Source of the DNA: Phyllobates terribilis
Lineage: Eukaryota
Assembly: GCF_046119375.1 (NCBI RefSeq)
Contig: NW_027362761.1
Coordinates: 278,256,001 to 278,320,000, forward strand
DNA: 64,000 bases
Direction of reading: 5' to 3'
Under the pieces are notes generated by a model that was not told the DNA's origin, did not search any database, and worked only from the letters and a program-made list of their open reading frames with translations. This document shows, in pieces, positions 558 through 29,958 of this stretch. Each line of letters opens with the position of its first letter. Within the stretch, counting starts at the first letter, position 1. The translations under genes and the position numbers were made by a program.

Positions 558-1088
558 TGTCATGCAAGGTGTAGTGCAACACAGAGGGAAAAGGGAGAGG
601 GAGCCCAAACATTAGGGAAAGGGGGAAGTGGAGACCTCCTACTCTGGTCTAGTGTCATCCTGTCTCAACTAACGTCCCTATATAGCCTCCTCAGCTATCG
701 CCGCTCACATGCCTCACCCTACTACGGCTACGGCTAGGGATGGAAAGAGATTAACACTAGTCAACCTCCACTAAAACTCTAAAGACAACAAGGGTAGACA
801 AAACAGGGTGAAATGGCTTAGCTTTAGATGAACTCCAAATGTGCACACGGCCTCAAGCTCCAGAGAGGATGAGGTACTGCTCCTGCTAAGCTTCACAAGT
901 AGAAATGAATATAACTGACGATGCCCTCTCAGACGCACCACATATATATACACCCAGGCCAGAGAGCCAATTAGCAAGAGAGAGGTAGCTGCTCGGTCCT
1001 AAAGACAGCCTCCTATCTAAGCAGCTGTCTGCAATGTCAAACATAGAGTGCAGGGCGACTGTCTGCCACCTCTGACACACCCGTAACA
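558..1088 (-). repeat. 3' LTR of outer Gypsy
   Basis: tgtca...gtaaca; homologous to 12788-13345 with indels; abuts the PPT gtacccccctccctct. Confidence 0.9.
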
Positions 1089-2961
1089 GTACCCCCCTCC
1101 CTCTCCAAGTGACCTCCGGACATTCAAGACCGGGTTTCTCAGGAAAAGAGATGTGGAATGAGCGAACCAATCTGGGAGCGTTCACCTCTAATGCTGAAAC
1201 CCACATCCTCTCCTCTGGACCATAGCCTTTCCAGTGCACCAAGTATTGTAGAGAATGATGTTGGAGACGAGAATCTATAATCCTCAAAATCTGTAACTCC
1301 AGATTACCATCAACCACTACTGGGGGCAGTGGTAGAGGTGAGGGCTCAAGATGTTCCACCTACCTTTTGATTAAGGACCTGTGGAACACATTGTGGACCT
1401 TAAGGGCCTGAGGAAGTTCAAGACAAAACGCTGCTGGGTTAATGACGGCGGTTATTTTATAGGGACCAAAAAACCATGTCCCAGCTTCCAAGAAGGAACT
1501 TTCAATCTTATATTCCTGGTAGACAACCACACAAAGTCATTCACATTCAAGTCCGGACCTGGCAAGCGTTTTCTGTCAGCCATACGTTTATACCTGTCTC
1601 CCATGGTCTTTAAATTAAACAGAATACCCTGCCTACCAAGGAGAGCAGCGAAGCTAACCGTTCCTCCTCAGGAACTCCTGAAGCTCCTCCCCCACTGAAG
1701 GTACCAAACTGTGGATGATAGCCGTATGCACCGAAGAACGGTAACCTGCCAGTGGATTCTTGACGATGATTATTGATTGCAAATTCTGCCAGTGGTAAGC
1801 AGGATGTGCAATCCTCCTGATTTTCGGAGATGAAACACCTGAGGTATGTCTCCAAGTTCTGATTGACAGACTCAGTCTGACCATTCGACTGGGTGGAGGG
1901 TGGAAGGCCGAGGAAAAGGACAGCTGCACCCCCAGTCGAGAACAGAATGCCTTTCAGAACTTGGAAACAAACTGGGTCCCCTGATCAAACACCACATTGG
2001 AAGGAACCCCGTGAAGCTTCCCAATCTCATTTATGAACACCTGAGCAAGTGTCTTGGCATTGGGAAGTGCAGGTAATGCGACGAAGTGAACCATTTTACT
2101 AAACCTATCTACTACCACCAAAACCACCATTTTGCCTGCAGAAACCAGTAGGTCAGTAATAAAATCCATGGACAAGTGTGTCCATGGCCTACTAGGGATA
2201 GGGAGCGGAAGAAGAGTACCAAACGGACGGGTATGCAAAACCTTAGAAAGCGCGCAAATAGTACAAGCAGCTACGTGTTCAATTACATCCTGATGCAACC
2301 CCAGCCACCAAAAATGTCGAGAGAGGAGGTCCGTGGTTGCTTTAGCACCTGGATGCCCAGCAAGCACAGAGTTATGAGGTTCCTTGATTACTTTGGGGCG
2401 CAGATTAGATGGTACAAATAACTTTCCTGAAGGGCAGGAGGCAGGAGCGTCCCCCTGAGCCCCCAACACCTCACCCTCCAGTTCAGGATAAAGAGCTGAA
2501 ATGACTACCCTTTTCTGTAATATCGGAGCAGGGTTCTCATGGTCACCACCACCAGCGAAGCTCCGGGACAAAGCATCAGCATTGACATTTTGACCCCTGG
2601 ACGAAAAGTGACAACAAAATTGAACCTAATAAAAAACAGGGACCTTCTGGATTGCCTAGGTTTGAGACATTTAGCTGACTGGAGATATAACAGGTTCTTA
2701 TCTTCAGTAATAACATTAATAGGACAGCCCCCTCCAACCAGTGTCGCCATTCCTCGAACGCCAATTTGATCGCCAAAAGTTCCCTATTACCCACATCATA
2801 ATTTCTCTCAGCCGACACAATTTTTTAGAAAAGAAGGCGCATGGACGTCATTTACCAGGGGTCGAACCCTGAGACAACACAGACCCAACCCCGACATCCG
2901 GAGCATCAACCTCCACAATAAAGTGTTGAGAAACTTTGGGTTGACTGAGTATAGGTGCAGT

Positions 2962-4285
2962 TGTGACGTCCTCTCCGGCGTAACCCCTTTTTAGTTTACC
3001 CTGGGTGTTGGGGGACTCGGTGTCGGGCCCTGTGATGGAGAGATGGGATGAAGCCGTGGCCCGGACCCGACCCGTGCTCAGGGCCACCACGTTAAAAGGA
3101 GATGGTGTGGGCTTGACCGGGTTGAGTGGTTAATTAATGACTACGCCACCTGGGGTGCCTGGTGAGGGGCTACCAGCACCGCTGCAGTCCGCTGAGGCAT
3201 GGTGTTATGGTGGTCAGAGTTCTTACTACTCCCCACTGGCGGAGCAAGGCCTCAGGGCAGAGGGACAGGATGGAGGGGGTAGTAGTAGAGGGACTCGGAT
3301 GCCGCGTTGCGCTCTGTGGCGCAGGAATAACAGTCTGGAGGCCATAGTGGTGAACTTCCAAGGCTTTACTCACATAGATGGCAAAGGAAGGCGACTCCCT
3401 GCTCCCCGTGGAGTCCTGCGCTCACCAGAGACGGGGGTCCGACAACCTCCGAGTAAGTCCAGCATTCAATCGGGACCCTACAGCAGAGTGTTCCTGAACT
3501 ACAGACCGAATCCTTTCCTGTCCGTGTGTGTGCAAATAGGCCTGGTCTCCCTCTGAACTCCTCTCAGAACAAGGGCACGGGTGGCAGCTCTGCTCCGTCC
3601 GATACCCGGTGGGATCCTCTGGGCCTACCGGGCTTTCCCGATCAGGACATGGAGTAGCAAGGTCGGGTGTCGGGGGCCGGTACCCCTTTTACAGCCGGAG
3701 TCCCTCTGAATATATCCGGTTGGCGAGGGCAGGTGCCGTACTCCGCTCCGTCTGCATCCTGCCTGGGATCCATTTGCTGTGAAGCCACACTCTTGAGCTC
3801 CGGGCCTTCTTGCTCATGGTCCTCGACCGGGCTGAGATATTCCTTTTCTCCCGCCTGCCCATCATCCCAAGGCCTAGGGACTAGGGCCGTGTCTCCATCC
3901 CCTGCAGGCCCACACAGGATCCACTTTCAGGGTAGGAGATCGCGTTCTGGGTACAGCCATAGTACAGCCGAGTACTGTCAGGATATAGTCAAGAACAACG
4001 AGCCAAGATGGCTTTTTGTTAAATATGAAATCTAAGGTGTAACTAACTTGTAGGTCCTCCACCCTCACCCACTAACTGGTTCCCCTAACTCTTGGTTCCC
4101 CAGTCTCCCTGTAACCAGGGGAGCAGCACCTAGTGCATACTAGCTCCCTCTGGTGGAGAAGTGTGGTGTTGGATGCAAGGTTTGGGTCACCACTATCACA
4201 CTGGTCTTACCTCAGAGGAGGAAAACTACACTCCATTAGAGAAGTGCAGCATCCCTGTGGCGGTCGAACCCTCAGGGGCGCCACA
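2962..4285 (-). mobile_element. Solo LTR-like element (~1.3 kb) inserted in the outer Gypsy RT/RNase H junction
   Basis: Interrupts pol between LKNHF and TAPIL. Termini tgtgacg...cgccaca. Shares motifs (gactacgccacc, ccctcaggg..aca terminal hairpin) with the LTR at 35882-37093. Exact TSD is ambiguous (ttg/ttgt overlapping the end). Confidence 0.7.
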
Positions 4286-5356
4286 TTGTGGCAAAATGAT
4301 TCTTTAAAAAAGAAAAAGCCTGGAGGGAAACATCTGACCATTTGGAAAAATCAGATCCCTTCTTAGTCATGTCAGTAAGGGGTTTCACTACAACAGAGTA
4401 ATTTTGAATGAATTTCCTGTAAAAATTAGTAAAGCCCAGAAAAAGTTGTAGGGCCTTCAGGTTCTCGGGACGTTCCCAGTCAAGGACTGCACAGATCTTC
4501 TCCGGATCCATCTGAAGACCTGAAGAGGACAAGAAGTACCCCAAAAACTGCACCTCCTGAACAGCGAAAACTAATTTTTCTAGTTTGCCTAAAGTTTGTT
4601 ATCCCTTAATATCTGGAGCACCTGCTTAACATGCCCCTGATGAGTCTCAAAATCAGATAAATAAACTAAAATATCGTCCAGATAGACCACCACAAACCTC
4701 CCCACCAAATTATGGAAAATATAATTTATGAAATGCTGGAATACTGCAGGTGAATTGGTCAAACCAAAAGGCATAACCAGAATCTCGAACTGTCCTTCCG
4801 GGGTATTGAACGCTGTCTTCCATTCGTCCCCTTCTCTGATCTAACCAGATTGTAGGCTTCCCTTAAATCCAACTTGGAGAATACCTTAGCTCCCACAACC
4901 TGGCTCAACAAATCAGGAATCAGAGGAAGAGGGTATGGATCACAGATGGTAATTTGATTTAATTCCCGGAAATCTAAACAGGGACGTAGACCGCCATCCT
5001 TTTCCTTCACAAAGAAGAACCCTGCCGCCACGGGCGAAGATGAGGGTCTGATATGTCCCCTCTCCAGACTTTCCGCAATGAAATCCTTCATGGCTTGTCT
5101 CTCAGGGCCAGAAAGATTATACAGTCTGGACTTCGGTAGTCTAGCTCATGGGGGTCAGGTTAATAGGACAGTCATAAGCACGATGAGGAGGTAAATCCTG
5201 ACACCCCTTCTCAGAAAAAATGTCCTCAAAACCGGACTGAAAAGGAGGTAATATTTCCATAGAGACAGTATCAATGGAAATATCTAGACAATTCTCATGT
5301 CAGTAATCTCCCCATTCAATAATCTCCCCGGCTTTCCAATCCATCAACAGATTATG

Positions 5357-6244
5357 TGTAGCGTTGGCGTCTCTGCCTCCTGCTAGGCAGGGACGCCGTT
5401 CCCCTCACCTCTCCGCTCCGTGCCCGGTGTCTTCCTCCCGCTCTGCTGGCAGCGCGCGCTGCTTCCCGGCCACTGTGCTTAGGGCGCGTGTGCGCACGCT
5501 CCCCCTCTCTTAAAGGGGCCGCGCGCGCCGTCCTAAGGAGTCCCCGGCCAATGGCCGGAGGATCTCACCGTATATAAGGCACCTCCTCCAAAATGGAGGT
5601 GCCCGAGCAATGTTGTTGCAAAGCCTATCAACTCTGCTTCAGCCCTCAGGTCCCGTTACCAGATACCTGCCAGTTACCTGCCAGATTCCTGCTTGATACC
5701 TGCCTGATACCTGTCTATCTGCTTGCATTCCTGCGGTCTGACAGTCTGCCTACCAGCACCAGCCAGTCTGTCTATGGATCAGTCTGCCCACTCACCTGGG
5801 AGCGCCCACCTGCTACCTGCCTGCTAGCCTACCTGGAGGCTCTGCCGTCACTTGCCGTGACCACCTGCCAGCCAGCCGTGAGACTCTTACCCGCTCACCT
5901 GGGAGCGCTCACCTGCTTCCTGCCTGCTAGCCTACCTGGAGGCTTAGCCGTCACTTGCTGTGACCACCTGCCTGTCCAGAGACTCTTGCCCGCTCACCTG
6001 GGAGCGCCCACCTGCTACCTGCCTGCTAGCCTACGTGGAGGCTCTGCTGTCACTTGCCGTGACCACCCGCCTGTCAAGAGACTGTTCCCGTCACTTGCCA
6101 TGTCCGTTCTGTCCTTCTACCCTGAGACTGTTCTTGTCACCTGCCGTGTCTACCTTCCCTCCTTCCCTGGGAGCCACCTGCCTCCTTACAAAGACTGCCC
6201 CTTTGTATAATAGCTCAGAGGTTCCACCTCCCAGACCCGTTACA
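5357..6244 (+). repeat. 5' LTR of inner Gypsy (888 bp; three ~99-bp internal repeats)
   Basis: tgtagcg...ccgttaca; TATA box at 5571; homologous to 10458-11444. Confidence 0.95.
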
Positions 6245-6246
6245 GT

Positions 6247-6256
6247 TTGCTCGGGC
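6247..6256 (+). promoter_or_regulatory. Non-tRNA (self-priming type) primer-binding site of inner Gypsy
   Basis: ttgctcgggc lies 2 nt after the LTR end. It does not begin with TGG and is the exact reverse complement of gcccgagcaa at 5601-5610. Confidence 0.75.
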
Positions 6257-6257
6257 C

Positions 6258-7244
6258 ATGGAACCCGGTGGCACCCAAGCTCCCTCGCTCTCAGACCTAT
6301 GTCGTGAACTCTCCCATCAGAGGTCCCAACAGGAGTCCATCCTGAGTCACCTCCGTAGTGTTAATTCCCGCCTGGACACATAAACTGCCTCATCGGAAGC
6401 TGCCTCCACTCGCACACTTGCTACCCCGGCACCGCCGCTGCCCATCAATACCATGGCATCTCTTACCGGTCCCCGCCTCTCCGACCCGCCTCGTTTTGGT
6501 GGAGATCCCGGCCAGGCATGGGGCTTCATTAACCAGTGCACTCTGCACTTCGAACTGTTGGCACACCAGTTTTCCACCGACCGAACCAAAGTAGCCTTCA
6601 TCATGTCCCATCTCACGGGGGAGGCGCTGGCTTGGCTAAATCCTCTATGGGAGAGAGGAGACCCCCTGGTATCCAACCTGCCAGCCTTTCTCACTGCTTT
6701 CCGGAAAGTCTTCGACGAACCAGGACGGAAGACCTCATCCGCCTCATCTCTGCTACGCCTCCGCCAAGGAAGTCTCACCGTGGGCCAATATGCCATACGG
6801 TTCCGTACCCTTGCTTCGGAGCTTGCCTGGGATAACGATGCCCTGGTGTCCGTCTTCTGGGAGGGTCTGTCCCGCCTTATTAAAGATGAACTCGCCGGTC
6901 GGGACATTCCTACCACTCTCGACGACTTAATAACACTTGCCACCCGGATTGACATCCGGTTCCAGGAGCGCACCAAAGAGGTCACCCGTGAGAGGAGGTT
7001 TCCACGCCTTGCCCCTACCTTCCAGAGACCCGTCACTTCCTCCGTTACTCCCCAGGCGCACTCTCCCGAGCCTATGCAGGTCGACCAGACACCAAGATGG
7101 TCAAAACCCGTCAAGAATTACGCCGTGCCGAGGGGAGCTGCTTCTACTGTGGCAGTAAGGAGCACCGGATCCGTTCCTGCCCGGAGAGGTCGGGAAACGC
7201 CTGTGTCTAGGATCGCTCAGAGAGGTCGCCCTAGACAAAAGTAA
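6258..7244 (+). pseudogene. gag of inner Gypsy (retrotransposon gag domain plus CCHC zinc knuckle)
   Basis: ATG at 6258, in-frame TAA at 6381, then ORF 6453-7244 (PPRFGGDP..WGFINQC). The knuckle [14 protein letters not shown] (~7140-7180) is in a shifted frame. Confidence 0.9.
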
Positions 7245-7260
7245 ACCCTCTCCATCTCTG

Positions 7261-10200
7261 ATGCTGTCGGTCTCTATCATCTGCGGGGAGAACCGTTATT
7301 TTGAACTGGCTCAACTTGACTCTGGAGCTGCCGGAAATCTCATTTCTCAGTCCCTGGTAGAGAAATACCGCATTCCCACCAAACCCCTGGCTGTACCCTT
7401 ATCTGTCGCCGCCGTGGATGGGGGTCTCTTACCACATCCCATCCAACTCATCACCGAATCCATAACTCTGCAGGTGGGAATGCTGCACTCTGAGAGCATC
7501 TTCTTCCATGTTCTGCCTGGACTCTCTCACGCCCTCTTGCTAGGCCTACCTTGGCTCCAGAGACATGCACCCGTGCTTGATTGGCAGACCGGAGAAGTCC
7601 TTCGCTGGGGACAGGACTGCCATAAGACTTTAGTTCCCGTTCATCCTGCTCGTCCTTCTCCTACCCCAGCCAATCTACCTGGCCTACCGGTCCCCTATTG
7701 GTCTTATGCAGACGTCTTTAATAAAAGAGAAGCAGAGACATTACCACCTCATAGACCATACGACTGCCCAATCAACCTGATGCCCGGCGCTACTCCTCCC
7801 CGTGGGCGTATTTACCCTTTGTCCGCTGCTGAGACCCGGTCCATGTCTGAATATATTGAGGAGAATCTGGCCCGGGGATTTATCCGGAAATCTACCTCCC
7901 CGGCGGGAGCAGGCTTCTTCTTCGTCAAAAAGAAGGACGGCTCACTCCGTCCCTGTATAGACTATAGAGGCCTTAACCAGATCACAGTGAAAAATAAATA
8001 CCCCCTTCCGCTCATTCCTGAATTATTTGACCGTCTGAGGGGGGCTTGAATCTTCACCAAGCTGGACCTCCATGGGGCGTATAACCTGGTCCGTATCCGT
8101 CAGGGGGATGAATGGAAGACGGCATTCAACACCCGGGACGGCCACTATGAATACCTTGTAATGCCCTTCGGTCTCTGTAACGCTCCCGCCGTCTTTCAAG
8201 AGTTGGTCAATGACATCTTCCGTGACCTTCTCTACTCCTGCGTGGTGGTGTACCTGGATGACATCTTGGTCTTCTCTCCGGATCTTCTCACTCACCGGAG
8301 GGACGTTCGTCAGGTCCTGCTCAGGCTCAGGCAGAACCACCTCTACGCTAAATATGAGAAGTGCCTCTTTGAGCAGACCTCACTTCCGTTTCTGGGCTAC
8401 ATAATCTCTCAGACCGGTCTACGAATGGATCCTGAGAAACTGTCTACCATCCAGAAGTGGCCTCGACCAGAGGGGTTGAAGGCTATTCAGCGGTTCCTGG
8501 GCTTCACCAACTACTACCGCCTCTTCATTCCGCACTTCTCTTCCCGGACTGCCCCTATCTCTGCGCTCACCCGTAAGGGCGCTAATCCCAGAGAATGGCC
8601 GCCCGAAGCAGAGGAGGCCTTCCTTTCCTTAAAACAAGCTTTCTCCTCTGCTTCTGTGCTGCATCGTCCAGACGGCAACAGACAATTCTTCCTAGAGGTT
8701 GACGCTTCCTCCTCTGGAGCCGGAGCGGTTTTTACACAAAAGTCGTCTTCCGGAAGAATGTAACCTGCGGCTTCTTTTCCAAACTCTTCTACTCTTCTGA
8801 GCTCAATTATTCTATAGGAGACCGAGAATTATTGGCCATTAAGCTGGCACTGGAGGAGTGGCGTTACCTGCTCGAGGGGGCTCTTTACCCGGTAATAATT
8901 TACACGGACCACAAGAACTTAGCTTACCTCCAGAGCGCCCAGAGACTTAACCCACGCCAAGCCCGGTGGTCCTTGTTCTTCGCCCGCTTTAATTTCATTC
9001 TTCATTTTCGCCCGGCAGACAAAAACATCAAAGCTGATGCCTTGTCCCAATCCTTTTTGGTCTCTGATCTTGAGGAGGAGCCTAAGCACATCATCGACCC
9101 CGCCAGAGTAATGCAGGTGGCCCCCGTGAATCTAAATCGTCTTCCACCTGGAAAGACGTTCGTAACAGTACCTGATCGTGAGAAGGTCCTACACTGGGGA
9201 CACTCATCTAAGCTAGCTGGCCACGCTGGTCAGAAGAAAACCCTCCAGCTTATTACCCGGCATTACTGCTGGCCTACCCTGCACAAGGACGTAATAGATT
9301 TTATTTCAGCCTGTGTGTCCTGCGCCCGCAACAAGGTTCCGAGACACCTGCCAGCTGGCTGCCTCCTTCCTCTTCCTGTACCTGCTGCCCCGTGGCAGCA
9401 TATAGCTATGGACTTTATAACGGACCTCCCTGTCTCTGCCGGTTGTACGGTCATTTGGGTGGTCGCTGACTGCTTTTCCAAGATGGCTCACTTCATTCCC
9501 CTGCCGGGTCTCCCGTCCGCATCTGAGTTAGCTAAAGACTTTATCCATCATGTTTTCCGTCTTCATGGTCTTCATCTCCACATTGTATCCGACCGAGGGG
9601 TTCAGTTCACCTCTCGCTTTTGGCGAGCCATGTGTAAATTGCTGGGGGTCACCTTGGACTTTTCTTCTGCTTATCACCCACAGTCCAATGGCCAAGTAGA
9701 GCGGATCAACCAAATTTTAACCAGTTTCCTCCGGCACTTTGTTAATGCTCACCATTCCGATTGGGTGGATCTTTTACCGTGGGCCGAATTTTCCTACAAT
9801 AATCACGAGAGCGAATCTTCCACCAAATCCCCGTTTTTTGTAGTCTTCGGTCAACATCCTCGGATCCCGTTTCCCGTCTCCACCTCGGTGGACAACCCGG
9901 CTGCGGAATCTCACGTTAGTGAATTTTCCTCCATTTGGGAGAGTACCCTATCCGCACTTCTTCGGTCATCCGAGCGGATGAAAAAACAGGCTGACAAAAG
10001 ACGTCTGGATCCACCTCAATTCCGTCCTGGAGATAAAGTCTGGCTCTCGTCCAAATATGTCCGGCTCAAGATTCCTTCCTACAAGTTAGGGCCTCGGTTC
10101 ATCGGCCCACTGGAAGTTATCAAACAAATCAACCCGGTGGCCTATAAATTGAAACTCCCGGCCAACTTGCGGATTCCTAACTCCTTCCATGTATCTCTAC

Positions 10201-10435
10201 TCAAACCCGTGGTACTTAACTCTTTTTCCAAGTCTACAGGTATGCCTCCTGCTCCGGTTTCCGCTGAAAACGAGTTTGAGGTAAAGAACATTCTGGCCAC
10301 CAAAAGGGTATGAGGAAAGTCCTTTTTTCTAGTGGATTGGAAGGGGTTTGGTCCTGAGGAGAGAACGTGGGAGCCCCGGGAGAACATCCATGCCCCTCTC
10401 ATCCTTGATAAATTTCTCTCTGGCCTAAAAAAGGG
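7261..10435 (+). pseudogene. pol of inner Gypsy (protease, RT, RNase H, integrase, chromodomain)
   Basis: LDSGAAGN protease; YLDD RT; EVDAS RNase H; HHCC/DDE integrase with GPY/F-type tail; chromodomain FEVKNIL..LVDWKGFGPEERTWEP. Lesions: TGA at 8047, stop/frameshift at ~8761, TGA at 10311. Confidence 0.93.
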
Positions 10436-10457
10436 GGGGCCTAAAGGGGGGGGGTAC

Positions 10458-11444
10458 TGTTGCGTCGGCGTCCCTGCCTCCGGCTAGGCAGGGATGCCGT
10501 TCCCCTCACCTCTCCGCTCCATGCCCGGCGTCTTCCTCCCGCTCTGCTGGCAGCGCGCGCTGCTTCCCGGCCACTGTGCCTAGGGCGCGTGTGCGCACGC
10601 TCCCCCTCTCTTAAAGGGGCCGCGCGCGCCGTCCTAAGGAGTCCCCGGCCAATGGCCGGAGGATCTCACCGTATATAAGGCACCTCCTCCAAAATGGAGG
10701 TGCCCGAGCAATGTTGTTGCAAAGCCTATCAACTCTGCTTCAGCCCTCAGGTCCCGTTACCAGATACCTGCCAGTTACCTGCCAGATTCCTGCTTGATAC
10801 CTGCCTGATACCTGTCTATCTGCTTGCATTCCTGTGGTCCGACAGTCTGCCTACCAGCACCAGCCAGTCTGACTATGGATCAGTCTGCCCGCTCAACTGG
10901 GAGCGCCCACCTGCTACCTGCCTGCTAGCCTTCCTGGAGGCTCTGCCGTCACTTGCCGTGACCACCTGCCAGCCAGCCGTGAGACTCTTACCCGCTCACC
11001 TTGGAGCGCTCACCTGCTTCCTGCCTGCTAGCCTACCTGGAGGCTTAGCCATCACTTGCTGTGACCACCTGCCTGTCCAGAGACTCTTGCCCGCTCACCT
11101 GGGAGCGCTCACCTGCTACCCACCTGCTAGCCTACCTGGAGGCTTAGCCATCGCTTGCTGTGACCACCTGCCTGTCCAGAAACTCTTGCCCGCTCACCTG
11201 GGAGCGCCCACCTGCTACCTGCCTGCTAGCCTACCTGGAGGCTCTGCCGTCACTTGCTGTGACCACCCGCCTGTCAAGAGACTGTTCCCGTCACTTGCCG
11301 TGTCTGTTCTGTCCTTCTACCCTGAGACTGTTCTTGTCACCTGCCGTGTCTACCTTCCCGCCTTCCCTGGGAGCCACCTGCCTCCTTACAAAGACTGCCC
11401 CTTTGTATAATAGCTCAGAGGTTCCACCTCCCAGATCCGTTACA
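10458..11444 (+). repeat. 3' LTR of inner Gypsy (987 bp; four ~99-bp internal repeats)
   Basis: Copy of 5357-6244 with one extra 99-bp unit. Confidence 0.95.
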
Positions 11445-12787
11445 TTATGTTTAACAAAACAAGGGATACCCAAAACAATCGGAGTAGGAAGATTGTCCAG
11501 AACATAGCAAGGGATGATTTCACAATGAACTGACCCCACCCTCAGTTTTACATTATGTACAATCTGAGTAAATGCTTTCTGTGCAAGTGGCGCAGAGTCA
11601 ATGGCAAAGATGGGAATAGGCTCAGCTAAAGCACAGCAAGCATGACAATGAGTTTTCACAAACTCAGCATCAACCATGCTGACCCTGGCTCCACTGTCAA
11701 CAAACACAGAAATTGTTTCAATTTTGCTCTCTAGCATCACCTCTGCTGTCAGGACAAAGCAGGAACTGCAGTTTGGCCACAAATGCACCCCTTGTTTTTC
11801 CAACTCCAGACTACTGAGAGTTAATCGAGTCTCCTTTTGTTTAGGAATTGAAGGACAGGTCCCAACAAAGTGTCCCTTTCTCCCGCAAAAAAAAATATGT
11901 CTTTTTTCTTGTGAATCTCTGGCGAGAAGTATGATGTAGAGACCCCCCCTAACTGCATGGGTTCCTCCACCTTCCCCAGTACTGGTTCACCCCCAGACCC
12001 CTCCCCTGGCAAAGGTACACAACCCCGACAAGAAGGCCCTGGAGAAGGTTGGCGCTCTCATCTATCCCGAAGGCGTCTATCTAGATGTATGGCCAAAGAC
12101 ATGGCAACCTCCAAGGACTGAGGGGTTTCATATACAGCTAAGGCATCTTTCAACCTTTCAGTAAGTCCCTCACAAAATTGACTTCTAAGGGCTGAGTCAT
12201 TCCATTTGGAATCCGTTGCCTATCTACAGAATTCCAAACTGTACGTTTCCACTGACCGAATCCCTTGCTGAAGGTGACGTGGCCTAGAGTCAGCCAAGGT
12301 GACTCGGTCAGGGTCATCATAGATGAGGGCCAGAGCTCAAAAAAACCCTCTACAGATTGGAGACAAACCAAGTCTAGCGGTAACGAAAAAGCCCATGACT
12401 GAGGATCGCCCTGCAATAGAGAGATCACAATACCAACCCGTTGCTCCTCATTACCGGAGTAGTAGGGACGAAGTTTGAAATACAATTTGCATGCCTCCTT
12501 AAATACAAAAAACCTGTCCGGGAGGGCAACCTTGGGTTCAGATTGGACAGGCCTACCTGCAGAGACCCCTACATTGGCAGACCGTAACCGCTGAAACTGC
12601 TACTGAACATCACAGCGGAGGTCATTCACCTCCAGAGACAGACAGCGGAACTGCTCTGCGAGCTCTGCAACTGATCCCATACCAAGGGAGAAAGGGAAAA
12701 ATAAAAGTGGACACCCAAAAATACACAAAGAAAAAAAAAATGTCAGTTTTTTTTTTTTTTTCCTAAAACAAGCTTGGCTGGTTATAA

Positions 12788-13345
12788 TGTCAAGCCAGGT
12801 GTAGTGCAACACAGAGGGAAAAGGGAGACGGAGCCCAGACACTAGCGAAAGGGGGAAGTGGACACCTCCTACTCTGGTCTAGCGTCACCCTGTCTCAACT
12901 AACGTCCCTATATAGCCTCCTCAGCTATCGCCGCTCACGTGCCTCACCCTACTTTTCCGGGCGTAAGGCTTTGGCTAGGGATGGAAGGAGATTAACACTA
13001 GTCAACCTCCACTAAAACTCTAAAGACAACAAGGGTAGACAAAGCAGGGGGAAATTACTTAGCTTTAGATGAACTCCAAATGTGCACACAGCCTCAAGCT
13101 CCAGAGAGTACGAGGTACTGCTCCAGCTAAACTTCACAAGTAGAAATGAATATAACTGGCAACGACCTCTCAGACACACCACATATATATACACCCAGGC
13201 CAGAGAGCTAATTAGCAAGAGAGAGGTAGCCGCTTGGTCCTAAAGACAACCTCCTATCTAAGCAGCTGTCTGCAATGCCAAATGTAGAGATCTCCTGCAA
13301 CCCACTGCAGGGCGACTGTCTGTCACCTCTGACACACCCGTGACA
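12788..13345 (-). repeat. 5' LTR of outer Gypsy
   Basis: tgtcaagcc...cgtgaca; minus-strand TATA at ~13183-13191; homologous to 558-1088. Confidence 0.9.
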
Positions 13346-25619: not shown

Positions 25620-26640
25620 TATATATATATATATATATATATATTTTTTTTGTTTGTTTCTCTAAAATACAAAGGAAATGTGTCATCTTTAACTTTAGAC
25701 CTTTTAGAGATCATTCCATCTTCAACAATGCTTAACTATTCAAGACTAGAGATGAGCGTTGTTCTACTCGAACTGTTCGCCAATCTCAAATTCGAGCTGT
25801 TTTGGGCGGTGTTCGAGCCGTTCGGCGAACACGAACAATTTGATAAAAATTCGGCTGTTCGAGGTTATGTTCGATAACTGTTCGTGCACCAAAATCATAA
25901 CTGGATTTTTTCTCAGTAATGATGAAAATTAATGTTAATACGCAGTTTGAGTGTACAGCGGGGTGGGGGGAGGGGCAGGGGATGGATCTCTGCAGGAACA
26001 ATGAAGATCTCCATTTTTTTTTCTCTTTCCCGCATTTGCAGTGGGGAGGTGCAATCTGTCAGCCTATCAGCAGCGCACACACGGAGCGAAGTGCTTTTTT
26101 TCACACAAGCAAGGGCATGTGTCATTGGCAGTGTATGTCACATGTCCTTGCCCTATAAGACCAAGCCATTTTCCCCGTCGCCACCATTTTCTCACTGCTG
26201 CAGCTGCGTGTTAGACGGCACCGCTGTTGCTGTGTGCGCTATACCTTGTTAATTTCAAGCCAATTTTCGCACAAATATACAGATAGCTTGGGAGTAGGGA
26301 ATAGTTGTGATTGCAGTCCTTTTAAGGACTAGGTTACAGCATTTCCTACGACTTTTATCAGGGAGGTCTGTGCTCTTAAATAGATAGGTTGTGGGAGTAA
26401 AGACTAATTGTAATTGGAGTCCTTTTCAGGACTAGGTTACATCAGTTCCTATCATTTTTTGCCAGGCAGGTCTGTGCCAGTGCTGTGCAAGTTTTTTTCA
26501 CAGCATTTGGCTGAATCTAGCAAAGCTAATCCATTTTGGCCTATTGCAGAGTGTGTTAGTCAGTGGAGTAGCCTATCTGTGTTGCAAGATATACCACCTG
26601 TGTATAGAATACCAATTTTTTTACTGCACCTAGTGAAGTA

Positions 26641-29600
26641 AAATCTTTTGGGCATAGCATCATTCTATTAGTCCATCTATACTGACCTCCATCAGGTTGC
26701 AAATTAAAACTAATTTTTATCTGCATCTACAGTACCTCTGAAAAAATATTTGGGCTTCTAGCTGTGTGTGGGACTTGTTGTATTAGTCCATCTATACTGA
26801 CCTCCATCAGGTTGCAAACTGAATATATTTTTTTCTGCATCTACCTCTGAAAAAATATTTGGGCTTCTAGCTGTGTGTGGGACTTGTTGTATTAGTCCAT
26901 CTATACTGACCTCCATCAGGTTGCAAACTGAATATATTTTTTTCTGCATCTACCTCTGAAAAAATATTGGGCTTCTAGCTGTGTGTGGGACTTGTTGTAT
27001 TAGTCCATCTATACTGACCTCCATCAGGTTGCAAACTGAATATATTTTTTCTGCATCTACCTCTGAAAAAATATTGGGCTTCTAGCTGTGTGTGGGTCTT
27101 GTTCTATTAATCCATCTATACTGACCTCCATCAGGTTGCAAACTGAATATAATTTTTTTCTGCATCTAGCTCTGAAAAAATATTTGGCCTTCTAGCAGTG
27201 TGTCGGACTTTCTCTATTAGTCCATCTATACTGACCTCCATCAGGTTGCAAATTAAAACTAATTTTTATCTGCATCTACAGTACCTCTGAAAAAATATTT
27301 GGGCTTCTAGCTGTGTGTGGGACTTGTTGTATTAGTCCATCTATACTGACATCCATCAGGTTGCAAACTGAATATATTTTTTTCTGCATCTACCTCTGAA
27401 AAAATATTTGGCCTTCTAGCAGTGTGTGGGACTTGTTGTATTAGTCCATCTATACTGACCTCCATCAGGTTGCAAACTGAATATATTTTTTACTGCATCT
27501 ACCTCTGAAAAAATATTGGGCTTCTAGCTTTGTGTGGGTCTTGTTCTATTAATCCATCTATACTGACCTCCATCAGGTTGCAAACTGAATATAATTTTTT
27601 TCTGCATCTAGCTCTGAAAAAATATTTGGCCTTCTAGCAGTGTGTCGGACTTTCTCTATTAGTCCATCTATACTGACCTCCATCAGGTTGCAAATTAAAA
27701 ATAATTTTTATCTGCATCTACAGTACCTCTGAAAAAATATTTGAGCTTCTAGCTGTGTGTGGGACTTGTTGTATTAGTTCATCTATACTGACCTCCATCA
27801 GGTTGCAAATTAAAAATAATTTGTATCTGCATCTACAGTACCTCTGAAAAAATATTTGGGCTTCTAGCTGTGTGTGGGACTTGTTGTATTAGTCCATCTA
27901 TACTGACCTCCATCAGGTTGCAAACTGAATATATTTTTTTCTGCATCTACCTCTGAAAAAATATTTGGGCTTCTAGCTGTGTGTGGGACTTGTTGTATTA
28001 GTCCATCTATACTGACCTCCATCAGGTTGCAAATTAAAAATAATTTTTATCTGCATCTACAGTACCTCTGAAAAAATATTTGAGCTTCTAGCTGTGTGTG
28101 GGACTTGTTGTATTAGTTCATCTATACTGACCTCCATCAGGTTGCAAATTAAAAATAATTTGTATCTGCATCTACAGTACCTCTGAAAAAATATTTGGGC
28201 TTCTAGCTGTGTGTGGGACTTGTTGTATTAGTCCATCTATACTGACCTCCATCAGGTTGCAAACTGAATATATTTTTTTCTGCATCTACCTCTGAAAAAA
28301 TATTTGGGCTTCTAGCTGTGTGTGGGACTTGTTGTATTAGTCCATCTATACTGACCTCCATCAGGTTGCAAATTAAAAATAATTTGTATCTGCATCTACA
28401 GTACCTCTGAAAAAATATTTGGGCTTCTAGCTGTGTGTGGGACTTGTTGTATTAGTCCATCTATACTGACCTCCATCAGGTTGCAAATTAAAACTAATTT
28501 TTATCTGCATCTACAGTACCTCTGAAAAAATATTTGGGCTTCTAGCTGTGTGTGGGACTTGTTGTATTAGTCCATCTATACTGACCTCCATCAGGTGGCA
28601 AACTGAATATATTTTTTTCTGCATCTACCTCTGAAAAAATATTGGGCTTCTAGCTGTGTGTGGGTCTTGTTCTATTAATCCATCTATACTGACCTCCATC
28701 AGGTTGCAAACTGAATATAATTTTTTTCTGCATCTAGCTCTGAAAAAATATTTGGCCTTCTAGCAGTGTGTCGGACTTTCTCTATTAGTCCATCTATACT
28801 GACCTCCATCAGGTTGCAAATTAAAAATAATTTTTATCTGCATCTACAGTACCTCTGAAAAAATATTTGGGCTTCTAGCTGTGTGTGGGACTTGTTGTAT
28901 TAGTCCATCTATACTGACCTCCATCAGGTTGCAAACTGAATATATTTTTTTCTGCATCTACCTCTGAAAAAATATTGGGCTTCTAGCTGTGTGTGGGACT
29001 TGTTGTATTAGTCCATCTATACTGACCTCCATCAGGTTGCAAACTGAATATATTTTTTTCTGCATCTACCTCTGAAAAAATATTGGGCTTCTAGCTGTGT
29101 GTGGGTGTTGTTCTATTAATCCATCTATACAGACCTCCATCAGGTTGCAAACTGAATATAATTTTTTTCTGCATCTACCTCTGAAAAAATATTTGGCCTT
29201 GTAGCAGTGTGTCGGACTTTCTCTATTAGTCCATCTATACTGACCTCCATCAGGTTGCAAATTAAAAATAATTTTTATCTGCATCTACAGTACCTCTGAA
29301 AAAATATTTGGGCTTCTAGCTGTGTGTGGGACTTGTTGTATTAGTCCATCTATACTGACCTCCATCAGGTTGCAAATTAAAAATAATTTTTATCTGCATC
29401 TACAGTACCTCTGAAAAAATATTTGGGCTTCTAGCTGTGTGTGGGACTTGTTGTATTAGTCCATCTATACTGACCTCCATCAGGTTGCAAACTAAATATA
29501 TTATTTTCTGCATCTACCTCTGAAAAAATATTGGGCTTCTAGCTGTGTGTGGGACTTGTTGTATTAGTCCATCTATACTGACCTCCATCAGGTTGCAAAC

Positions 29601-29842
29601 TGAATATATTTTTTTCTGCATCTACCTCTGAAAAAATATTGGGCTTCTAGCTGTGTGTGGGTCTTGTTCTATTAATCCATCTATACAGACCTCCATCAGG
29701 TTGCAAACTGAATATAATTTTTTTCTGCATCTACCTCTGAAAAAATATTTGGCCTTGTAGCAGTGTGTCGGACTTTCTCTATTAGTCCATCTATACTGAC
29801 CTCCATCAGGTTGCAAACTGAATATATTTTTTCCTGCATCTA
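26641..29842. repeat. Tandem array of ~29 units of 107-115 bp inside the hAT element
   Basis: Unit ctgaaaaaatatttgggcttctagctgtgtgtgggacttgttgtattagtccatctatactgacctccatcaggttgcaaa...ctgcatctacct, with several recurring variants. Confidence 0.97.
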
Positions 29843-29958
29843 ACCCAGCCAATAGTTTTGGCCTAATACCACAGTTTGGCCACTCAGCTCTGCTCGGTTA
29901 CCATCCATTGTTTTTTTGTGCAAACAACTCCAGAGTTGTGAATTAGTTAACCACCAAA

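Follow-up and report, generated by a model that had tools for sequence, protein, structure and literature searches.

Covarying primer-binding sites suggest Tf1-type self-priming in a chromovirus family of the frog Phyllobates terribilis

A full-length chromovirus in a 64,000-nt stretch of Phyllobates terribilis DNA (the window) carries, at positions +3 to +12 from the end of its 5' LTR (6247-6256), the exact reverse complement of ten nucleotides of that LTR (5601-5610), and position 5601 lies 30 nt past the first T of a TATA box. A primer site complementary to the element's own LTR at this distance from the TATA box suggests that the family was likely primed with the 5' end of its own RNA, and Tf1-type self-priming, in which no tRNA takes part, is very probably the best explanation for the sequences of the window family. 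The 10-nt complementarity, the 30-nt spacing from the TATA box at 5571 and the non-tRNA character of the site after the LTR had all been pointed out in a sequence-only reading of the window, and every coordinate that it gave was correct; there is no TGG before +15. Its inference that priming is tRNA-free is supported by the kept pairing, by covariation across families and by the lack of a TGG adjoining the LTR. The basic mechanism is not new, and the interpretation is already anticipated in print, vertebrates included.

Results

The positions of the element, of its parts and of the older element in which it is nested are given in Table 1. The element is a chromovirus of the Ty3/gypsy class, with gag followed by protease, RT, RNase H and integrase between two LTRs, a polypurine tract, a target duplication and a chromodomain. 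Pfam searches identified DUF4939, Ty3_capsid and Retrotrans_gag in gag and then protease, RT, RNase H, integrase, SH3_Tf2-1 and the chromodomain (PF00385, E 2e-9, 10314-10430), the last lying at the integrase C-terminus, behind a stop. The PEG10 capsid was the only PDB match of gag, and the CCHC motif of gag is in a shifted frame. Together the DUF4939 and PEG10 hits appear to fit membership of the Tf1/sushi group, for which they are indirect support. At the sequence level the slippery heptamer at 7192-7198 has the phase X XXY YYZ, pol lying in the -1 frame, and 7192-7236 is what we take to be a frameshift site of the PEG10 kind. The window copy is dead: it has three premature stops (6381, 8047 and 10311), and its frame changes twice without programming, once near 7100 and once near 8750, the last two stops and the second frame change being those that break pol; the "handful of lesions" previously ascribed to it was about right. 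In an RT tree built without named reference elements, nine animal-side rows split from three plant-like rows (100/100).

Table 1. Positions of the chromovirus, its predicted priming signals and the surrounding older element, in window coordinates.
Feature	Position	Strand	Remarks
Older LTR element, family B	558..13345	-	LTRs 13345-12788 and 1088-558; studied element nested inside
5-bp target-site duplication	5352..5356 (left copy), 11445-11449 (right copy)	+	
Full-length Ty3/gypsy chromovirus	5357-11444	+	LTRs TG...CA, 888 + 987 nt; 5-bp target duplication
5' LTR (TG...CA), 888 nt	5357..6244	+	R/U5 with ~99-nt tandem units
TATA-like box TATATAAG	5571..5578	+	spacing shared with related families
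9-bp inverted repeat, TATA to +3	5578..5603	+	nearly unchanged in sister subfamily
Predicted RNA 5' end and self-primer	5601..5610	+	pyrimidine at -1, G at +1; start inferred
U5 arm of 7-bp U5/leader stem	6220..6226	+	rivalled by local hairpin
2-nt spacer, LTR end to primer site	6245..6246	+	
Primer-binding site	6247..6256	+	exact complement of 5601-5610
Near-invariant C after primer site	6257..6257	+	no templated partner
gag ATG (6258-6260) and leader arm of stem (6259-6265)	6258..6265	+	
gag (DUF4939, Ty3_capsid, Retrotrans_gag, CCHC knuckle)	6258..7210	+	stop at 6381, frame change near 7100
Slippery heptamer (7192-7198), then 7-bp hairpin	7192..7236	+	predicted programmed -1 frameshift
pol: protease, RT (YLDD 8251), RNase H, integrase, SH3, chromodomain	7159..10433	+	
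Polypurine tract	10443..10454	+	
3' LTR, 987 nt	10458..11444	+	one extra 99-nt unit

The two LTRs match at 865 of 888 aligned bases (K2P 0.026), and the 10-mer recurs in the 3' LTR at 10702-10711. The ~99-nt units of R/U5 (5770-6090 and 10870-11290) vary in number between both LTRs and among copies, in which the distance from the TATA box to the LTR end ranges from 669 to 1161 nt. The spacer at 6245-6246 is complementary to the two nucleotides before the 3' LTR (10456-10457); such symmetric 2-nt ends hold in the window family only and fail in families C, E, F and G. The inverted repeat at 5578-5603 is near-constant in a sister subfamily that is only ~74% identical downstream of the LTR, and is not clearly present in families other than these two; in the 3' copy of the RNA it would mask the start of the second 10-mer. 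A canonical AATAAA is absent from the window family's LTR (6200-6244 region), whereas in family G such a signal lies about 30 nt short of the LTR end.

No complement between the site after the LTR and the whole 5' LTR is longer than the 10-mer, which does not extend on either side. In 20,000 mononucleotide shuffles of the LTR the corresponding probability was P = 0.011 for a match anywhere in the LTR, and P = 0.0005 for one in a 40-nt interval round the predicted start. Folding of the leader, a check proposed by the sequence-only reading and made here on 5601-6290, gave the 10-bp duplex in both the MFE and the centroid structure, with pair probabilities of 0.61-0.87 in the full leader. No general structure signal was found for the leader as a whole (folding z-score 0.45).

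The 7-bp U5/leader stem that had been described as bracketing the primer site stood as far as its letters are concerned, 6220-6226 and 6259-6265 being exact reverse complements of which the 3' arm overlaps the ATG. As a fold it fared less well, with a pair probability of about 0.1 in the full leader of the window copy, because a local hairpin competes. Counterparts of 7-8 bp with changed pairs are present in families C, C2, E and F; the stem lies over the gag ATG in families A (the window family), E and F, and is weak in G and B. When the U5/leader arms were compared across families in a matrix, own-family duplexes were not consistently the most stable, and by duplex energy the stem is not family-specific. 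Tf1 is said in 10.1101/2022.12.06.519325 to require three duplexes, the "pretzel". The third, which that source places just upstream of the primer site, may correspond to a short wobble-rich helix in C and F, and was absent in a constrained local fold of the window copy and of E.

Related copies were sought in 10.6 Gb of genome. The best 30 loci, one of which is the window itself, gave 29 anchored close copies with perfect pairing in 21, and one of the eight non-perfect copies is a mis-anchored row. These close copies are 95-96% identical, so their agreement reflects descent and is not independent evidence. Conservation of the complementarity among family copies, another check put forward by the earlier reading, was borne out by these 21 perfect pairs and by diverged families that pair with other letters.

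For the covariation set, 55 stretches round gag and integrase hits were taken, and LTR ends were set from pairs of LTRs, blind to the pairing. Usable LTR ends in register were obtained in 22 of the 55. Thirteen of the 19 non-plant-like elements had a 10-11-nt complement at +2/+3 to +12, two had 9 nt and four had fewer. None of the three elements with a plant-type tRNA site, which serve as controls, reached a 9-nt complement; one of them, L161, gave a match of 8 nt that lies 27-29 nt past a TATA-like run (shuffle P 0.11). Natural copies of B and C2 were added to this set, and the 5' arms are GCCCGAGCAA in the window family, GCCGGTTATA in family B, GCTAGAGTAT in C, GCTTGAGTAT in C2, GCCTGAGTAT in E, GCTTGTGTAT in F, GCGCTCAGAT in G and GCGCTCTGAT in G2. 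Across these eight distinct 10-mer pairs positions 1-2 alone are invariant, and the pairs match one another at 2-9 of the 10 positions. Representatives were chosen as perfect pairs and their 5' arms were located by complement, and the diagonal of the comparison matrix is therefore 10 by construction. A point independent of the pairing is that in 10/10 representatives the first base of the arm is a G preceded by a pyrimidine, with a TATA-like box about 30 nt away. Pairing ran into U3 in none of the ten, and in all families the primer-site arm keeps its fixed distance of +2/+3 to the LTR end. The families, which make up about three clades plus B, show 65-96% RT identity to the window copy. They share ancestry (about four deep lineages), and the nine pairs, counting that of the sister subfamily described below, are therefore not nine independent origins.

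Natural copies of family B showed perfect pairing in 3 of 15 anchored cases, most of the others being off by 1-3 bases, often at CpG. In unanchored scans the layout was found at 11/30 DUF4939 loci (one looks spurious) and at 11/30 capsid loci, many loci being decayed or truncated. On small contigs it was found at 0/30 gag loci, a weak control in that neither an LTR end nor a tRNA site was found there. In family E (L081-L083 and further hits), also self-priming by this layout, the LTRs are 99.5-99.9% identical and there is a single long reading frame, so that this lineage was recently active and some families express gag-pol with no frameshift.

Compensation was tested within the lineage, U3 alone serving to anchor the 5' arm. 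The search pattern in which position +7 of the site had to differ gave 1041 matches, with the same variant in 100/100 of the matches listed. This sister subfamily, the ninth pair, has the compensating base in 23/23 anchored copies, 7 of the 30 being without an anchor. The pattern forcing a change at +5 gave 147 scattered matches of three kinds, and these sporadic variants were compensated in 0/28 anchored copies (two had no anchor). The amplified variant is thus compensated whereas the sporadic variants are not, and the latter are probably mutations that arose after insertion. Single copies with compensated double changes, the footprint of a primer that templates its site, numbered 0/28 at the +5 position; copy L264 changes both sides, both at CpG sites, and provides no clean footprint of this kind. 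A recurrent hit of the sister-family pattern search, mostly with no gag behind it and without the complement, was dropped.

A C follows the primer site in 87 of the 90 copies in which the motif was found (A 30/30, B 17/19, C/C2/E/F 32/33, G 8/8), the A and B loci having been selected for similarity to window copies of which this base is a part. The next base varies. At position -1 the 5' arm always has T or C, so the C after the site has no templated partner.

Discussion

Under self-priming, a capped RNA would start at the G at 5601, and its nucleotides 1-10 would pair with the primer site across a loop of 640-1130 nt, a fold that the U5/leader stem over the gag ATG may help to hold. As in Tf1, the element's RNase H would then cut immediately beyond the paired bases, and minus-strand DNA primed by the 3' end thus formed would extend across the 2-nt spacer, U5 and R. 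The remaining replication cycle would presumably be standard. For Tf1 itself this mechanism, the RNase H step included, is presented as established (PMC7175516). Wild-type Tf2 RNA is reported to start mostly downstream of the primer site, the primer-bearing start appearing on derepression (PMC5341516), so a start elsewhere in ordinary tissue alone would not refute self-priming. The primer is reported to be copied into DNA in about half of Tf1 cDNAs (PMC11042837), and such copying could let the primer template the primer site.

It is improbable, though worth weighing, that the primer came from the R copy in the 3' LTR, or from a 5' end acting in trans, rather than from the same RNA's 5' end. 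The 10-mer is identical in both LTRs, and covariation therefore cannot tell the source of the primer; the loop, which varies from ~200 to >1100 nt among copies and families, also favours this reading. Against a 3' copy, which carries attached U3 and could extend the duplex, pairing stops at the pyrimidine/G step 30 nt after the TATA-like box in every representative, as it should if the arm is the 5' end of a transcript; this does not argue against a 5' end in trans.

Nor is it at all probable that the pairing is kept for another job, such as packaging, translation control or end-to-end circularisation, with priming by an unknown route. In several families the adjacent stem lies over the gag ATG and the leader fold may therefore regulate translation, but the 3' arm of the pairing is fixed at +2/+3, where the minus-strand primer must end, and no other primer site is present.

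That a host tRNA or tRNA fragment primes, the LTR match being a regulatory fold or chance, is scarcely credible, since a CCA end needs a TGG and the host would have to supply nine different primers for nine sites that each match their own LTR. The comparison with tRNA 3' ends suggested by the sequence-only reading accordingly leaves no CCA-ended tRNA able to pair adjoining the LTR. There is a TGG at +15, but the genome pattern for a tRNA opposite it gave one match, which is not a tRNA, against 19 control matches. C61 of the T-arm is invariant in tRNAs, and the 18-mer opposite this TGG is without it. The tRNA genes retrieved by an Rfam search (14 of 30 loci scanned) were all tRNA-Lys(TTT), so that internal fragments are partly screened, for tRNA-Lys only; the best match of tRNA-Lys to the primer site is 5-6 nt.

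Within the self-priming scheme, the m7G cap might pair with the near-invariant C as an eleventh pair, the cap becoming a structural part of the primer duplex; we regard this as possible but unlikely. If true, it would fix a cap-G-C start across the families and make the duplex equal in length to the 11 pairs of Tf1. Alternatively, junction geometry or descent may account for the C. Literature searches, judged by title and abstract, turned up nothing relevant to the cap-pairing idea and no relevant experimental test of self-priming in a vertebrate, which does not show absence from print.

Tf1/Tf2 of Schizosaccharomyces pombe, Tj1, Tosmo1-3 and Tcry1 are described as likewise chromoviruses with a primer site complementary to the RNA 5' end and a further U5-leader duplex (PMC7175516, PMC4600332, 10.1101/2022.12.06.519325); in the window element that 5' end is predicted, and in the window copy the U5-leader duplex is weakly predicted. 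The window duplex is 10 bp against Tf1's 11, although some window-family copies reach 11. The window element differs from these elements in its 2-nt spacer after the LTR and its long, length-variable loop, and from the fission-yeast elements in having a CCHC knuckle and a predicted -1 frameshift, which they lack. Tf1's third "pretzel" duplex was not found in the window family. Vertebrate Tf1/sushi elements (sushi-ichi, Amn-ichi/ni/san; GyDB V-clade) have in common with the window element the chromodomain and a DUF4939/PEG10-type gag, and its -1 frameshift layout is typical of non-yeast Tf1/sushi members. Amn-san is reported to be the most abundant frog LTR element, frogs carrying many such elements (PMC4131045). 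Plant chromoviruses of the Tcn1 clade are likewise predicted to self-prime by LTR/PBS complementarity, and differ in their moss and club-moss hosts (PMC6317226).

According to 10.1101/2022.12.06.519325 self-priming is a feature common to the Tf1/sushi group; it is described "from yeast and vertebrates" in PMC6317226 and implicated "from fungi to vertebrates" in PMC4600332, each of the three citing Butler et al. 2001. The earlier statement that it had been proposed for this group is in line with these, and the proposal covers the vertebrate elements. The nine covarying pairs in one genome, with a compensated subfamily set against uncompensated sporadic variants, provide a clean contrast and strong comparative support for the view that tRNA plays no part in the copying of a very abundant vertebrate lineage. 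Elements that prime themselves would be expected, from PMC7472051, to escape being controlled by 3' tRNA fragments. Fixed rules (10 bp, a GC start, a C following the site and a spacer of 1-2 nt) would allow simple start-site annotation and make the cap question testable.

Additional observations

Many small contigs of 40-80 kb (about C2700-C8300; L156, L161, L165, L287-L316) contain Ty3/gypsy elements unlike the chromosomal ones, and in three of these elements the primer site is presumably a plant-type initiator-tRNA site. The small contigs with plant-like elements are likely foreign (plant) DNA in the assembly. The tRNA-Lys(TTT) genes form large tandem clusters at C1 ~817 Mb and C11 ~575 Mb, with a spacing of about 1.05 kb on C1.

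The older family B element in the window has a primer pair of its own (13160-13151 / 12786-12777), imperfect in this copy and different from that of the nested element, and its interior contains another insert near 3000-4260. Elsewhere in the window, 26600-29850 is a tandem array of ~30 units of 107-115 nt with a higher-order pattern.
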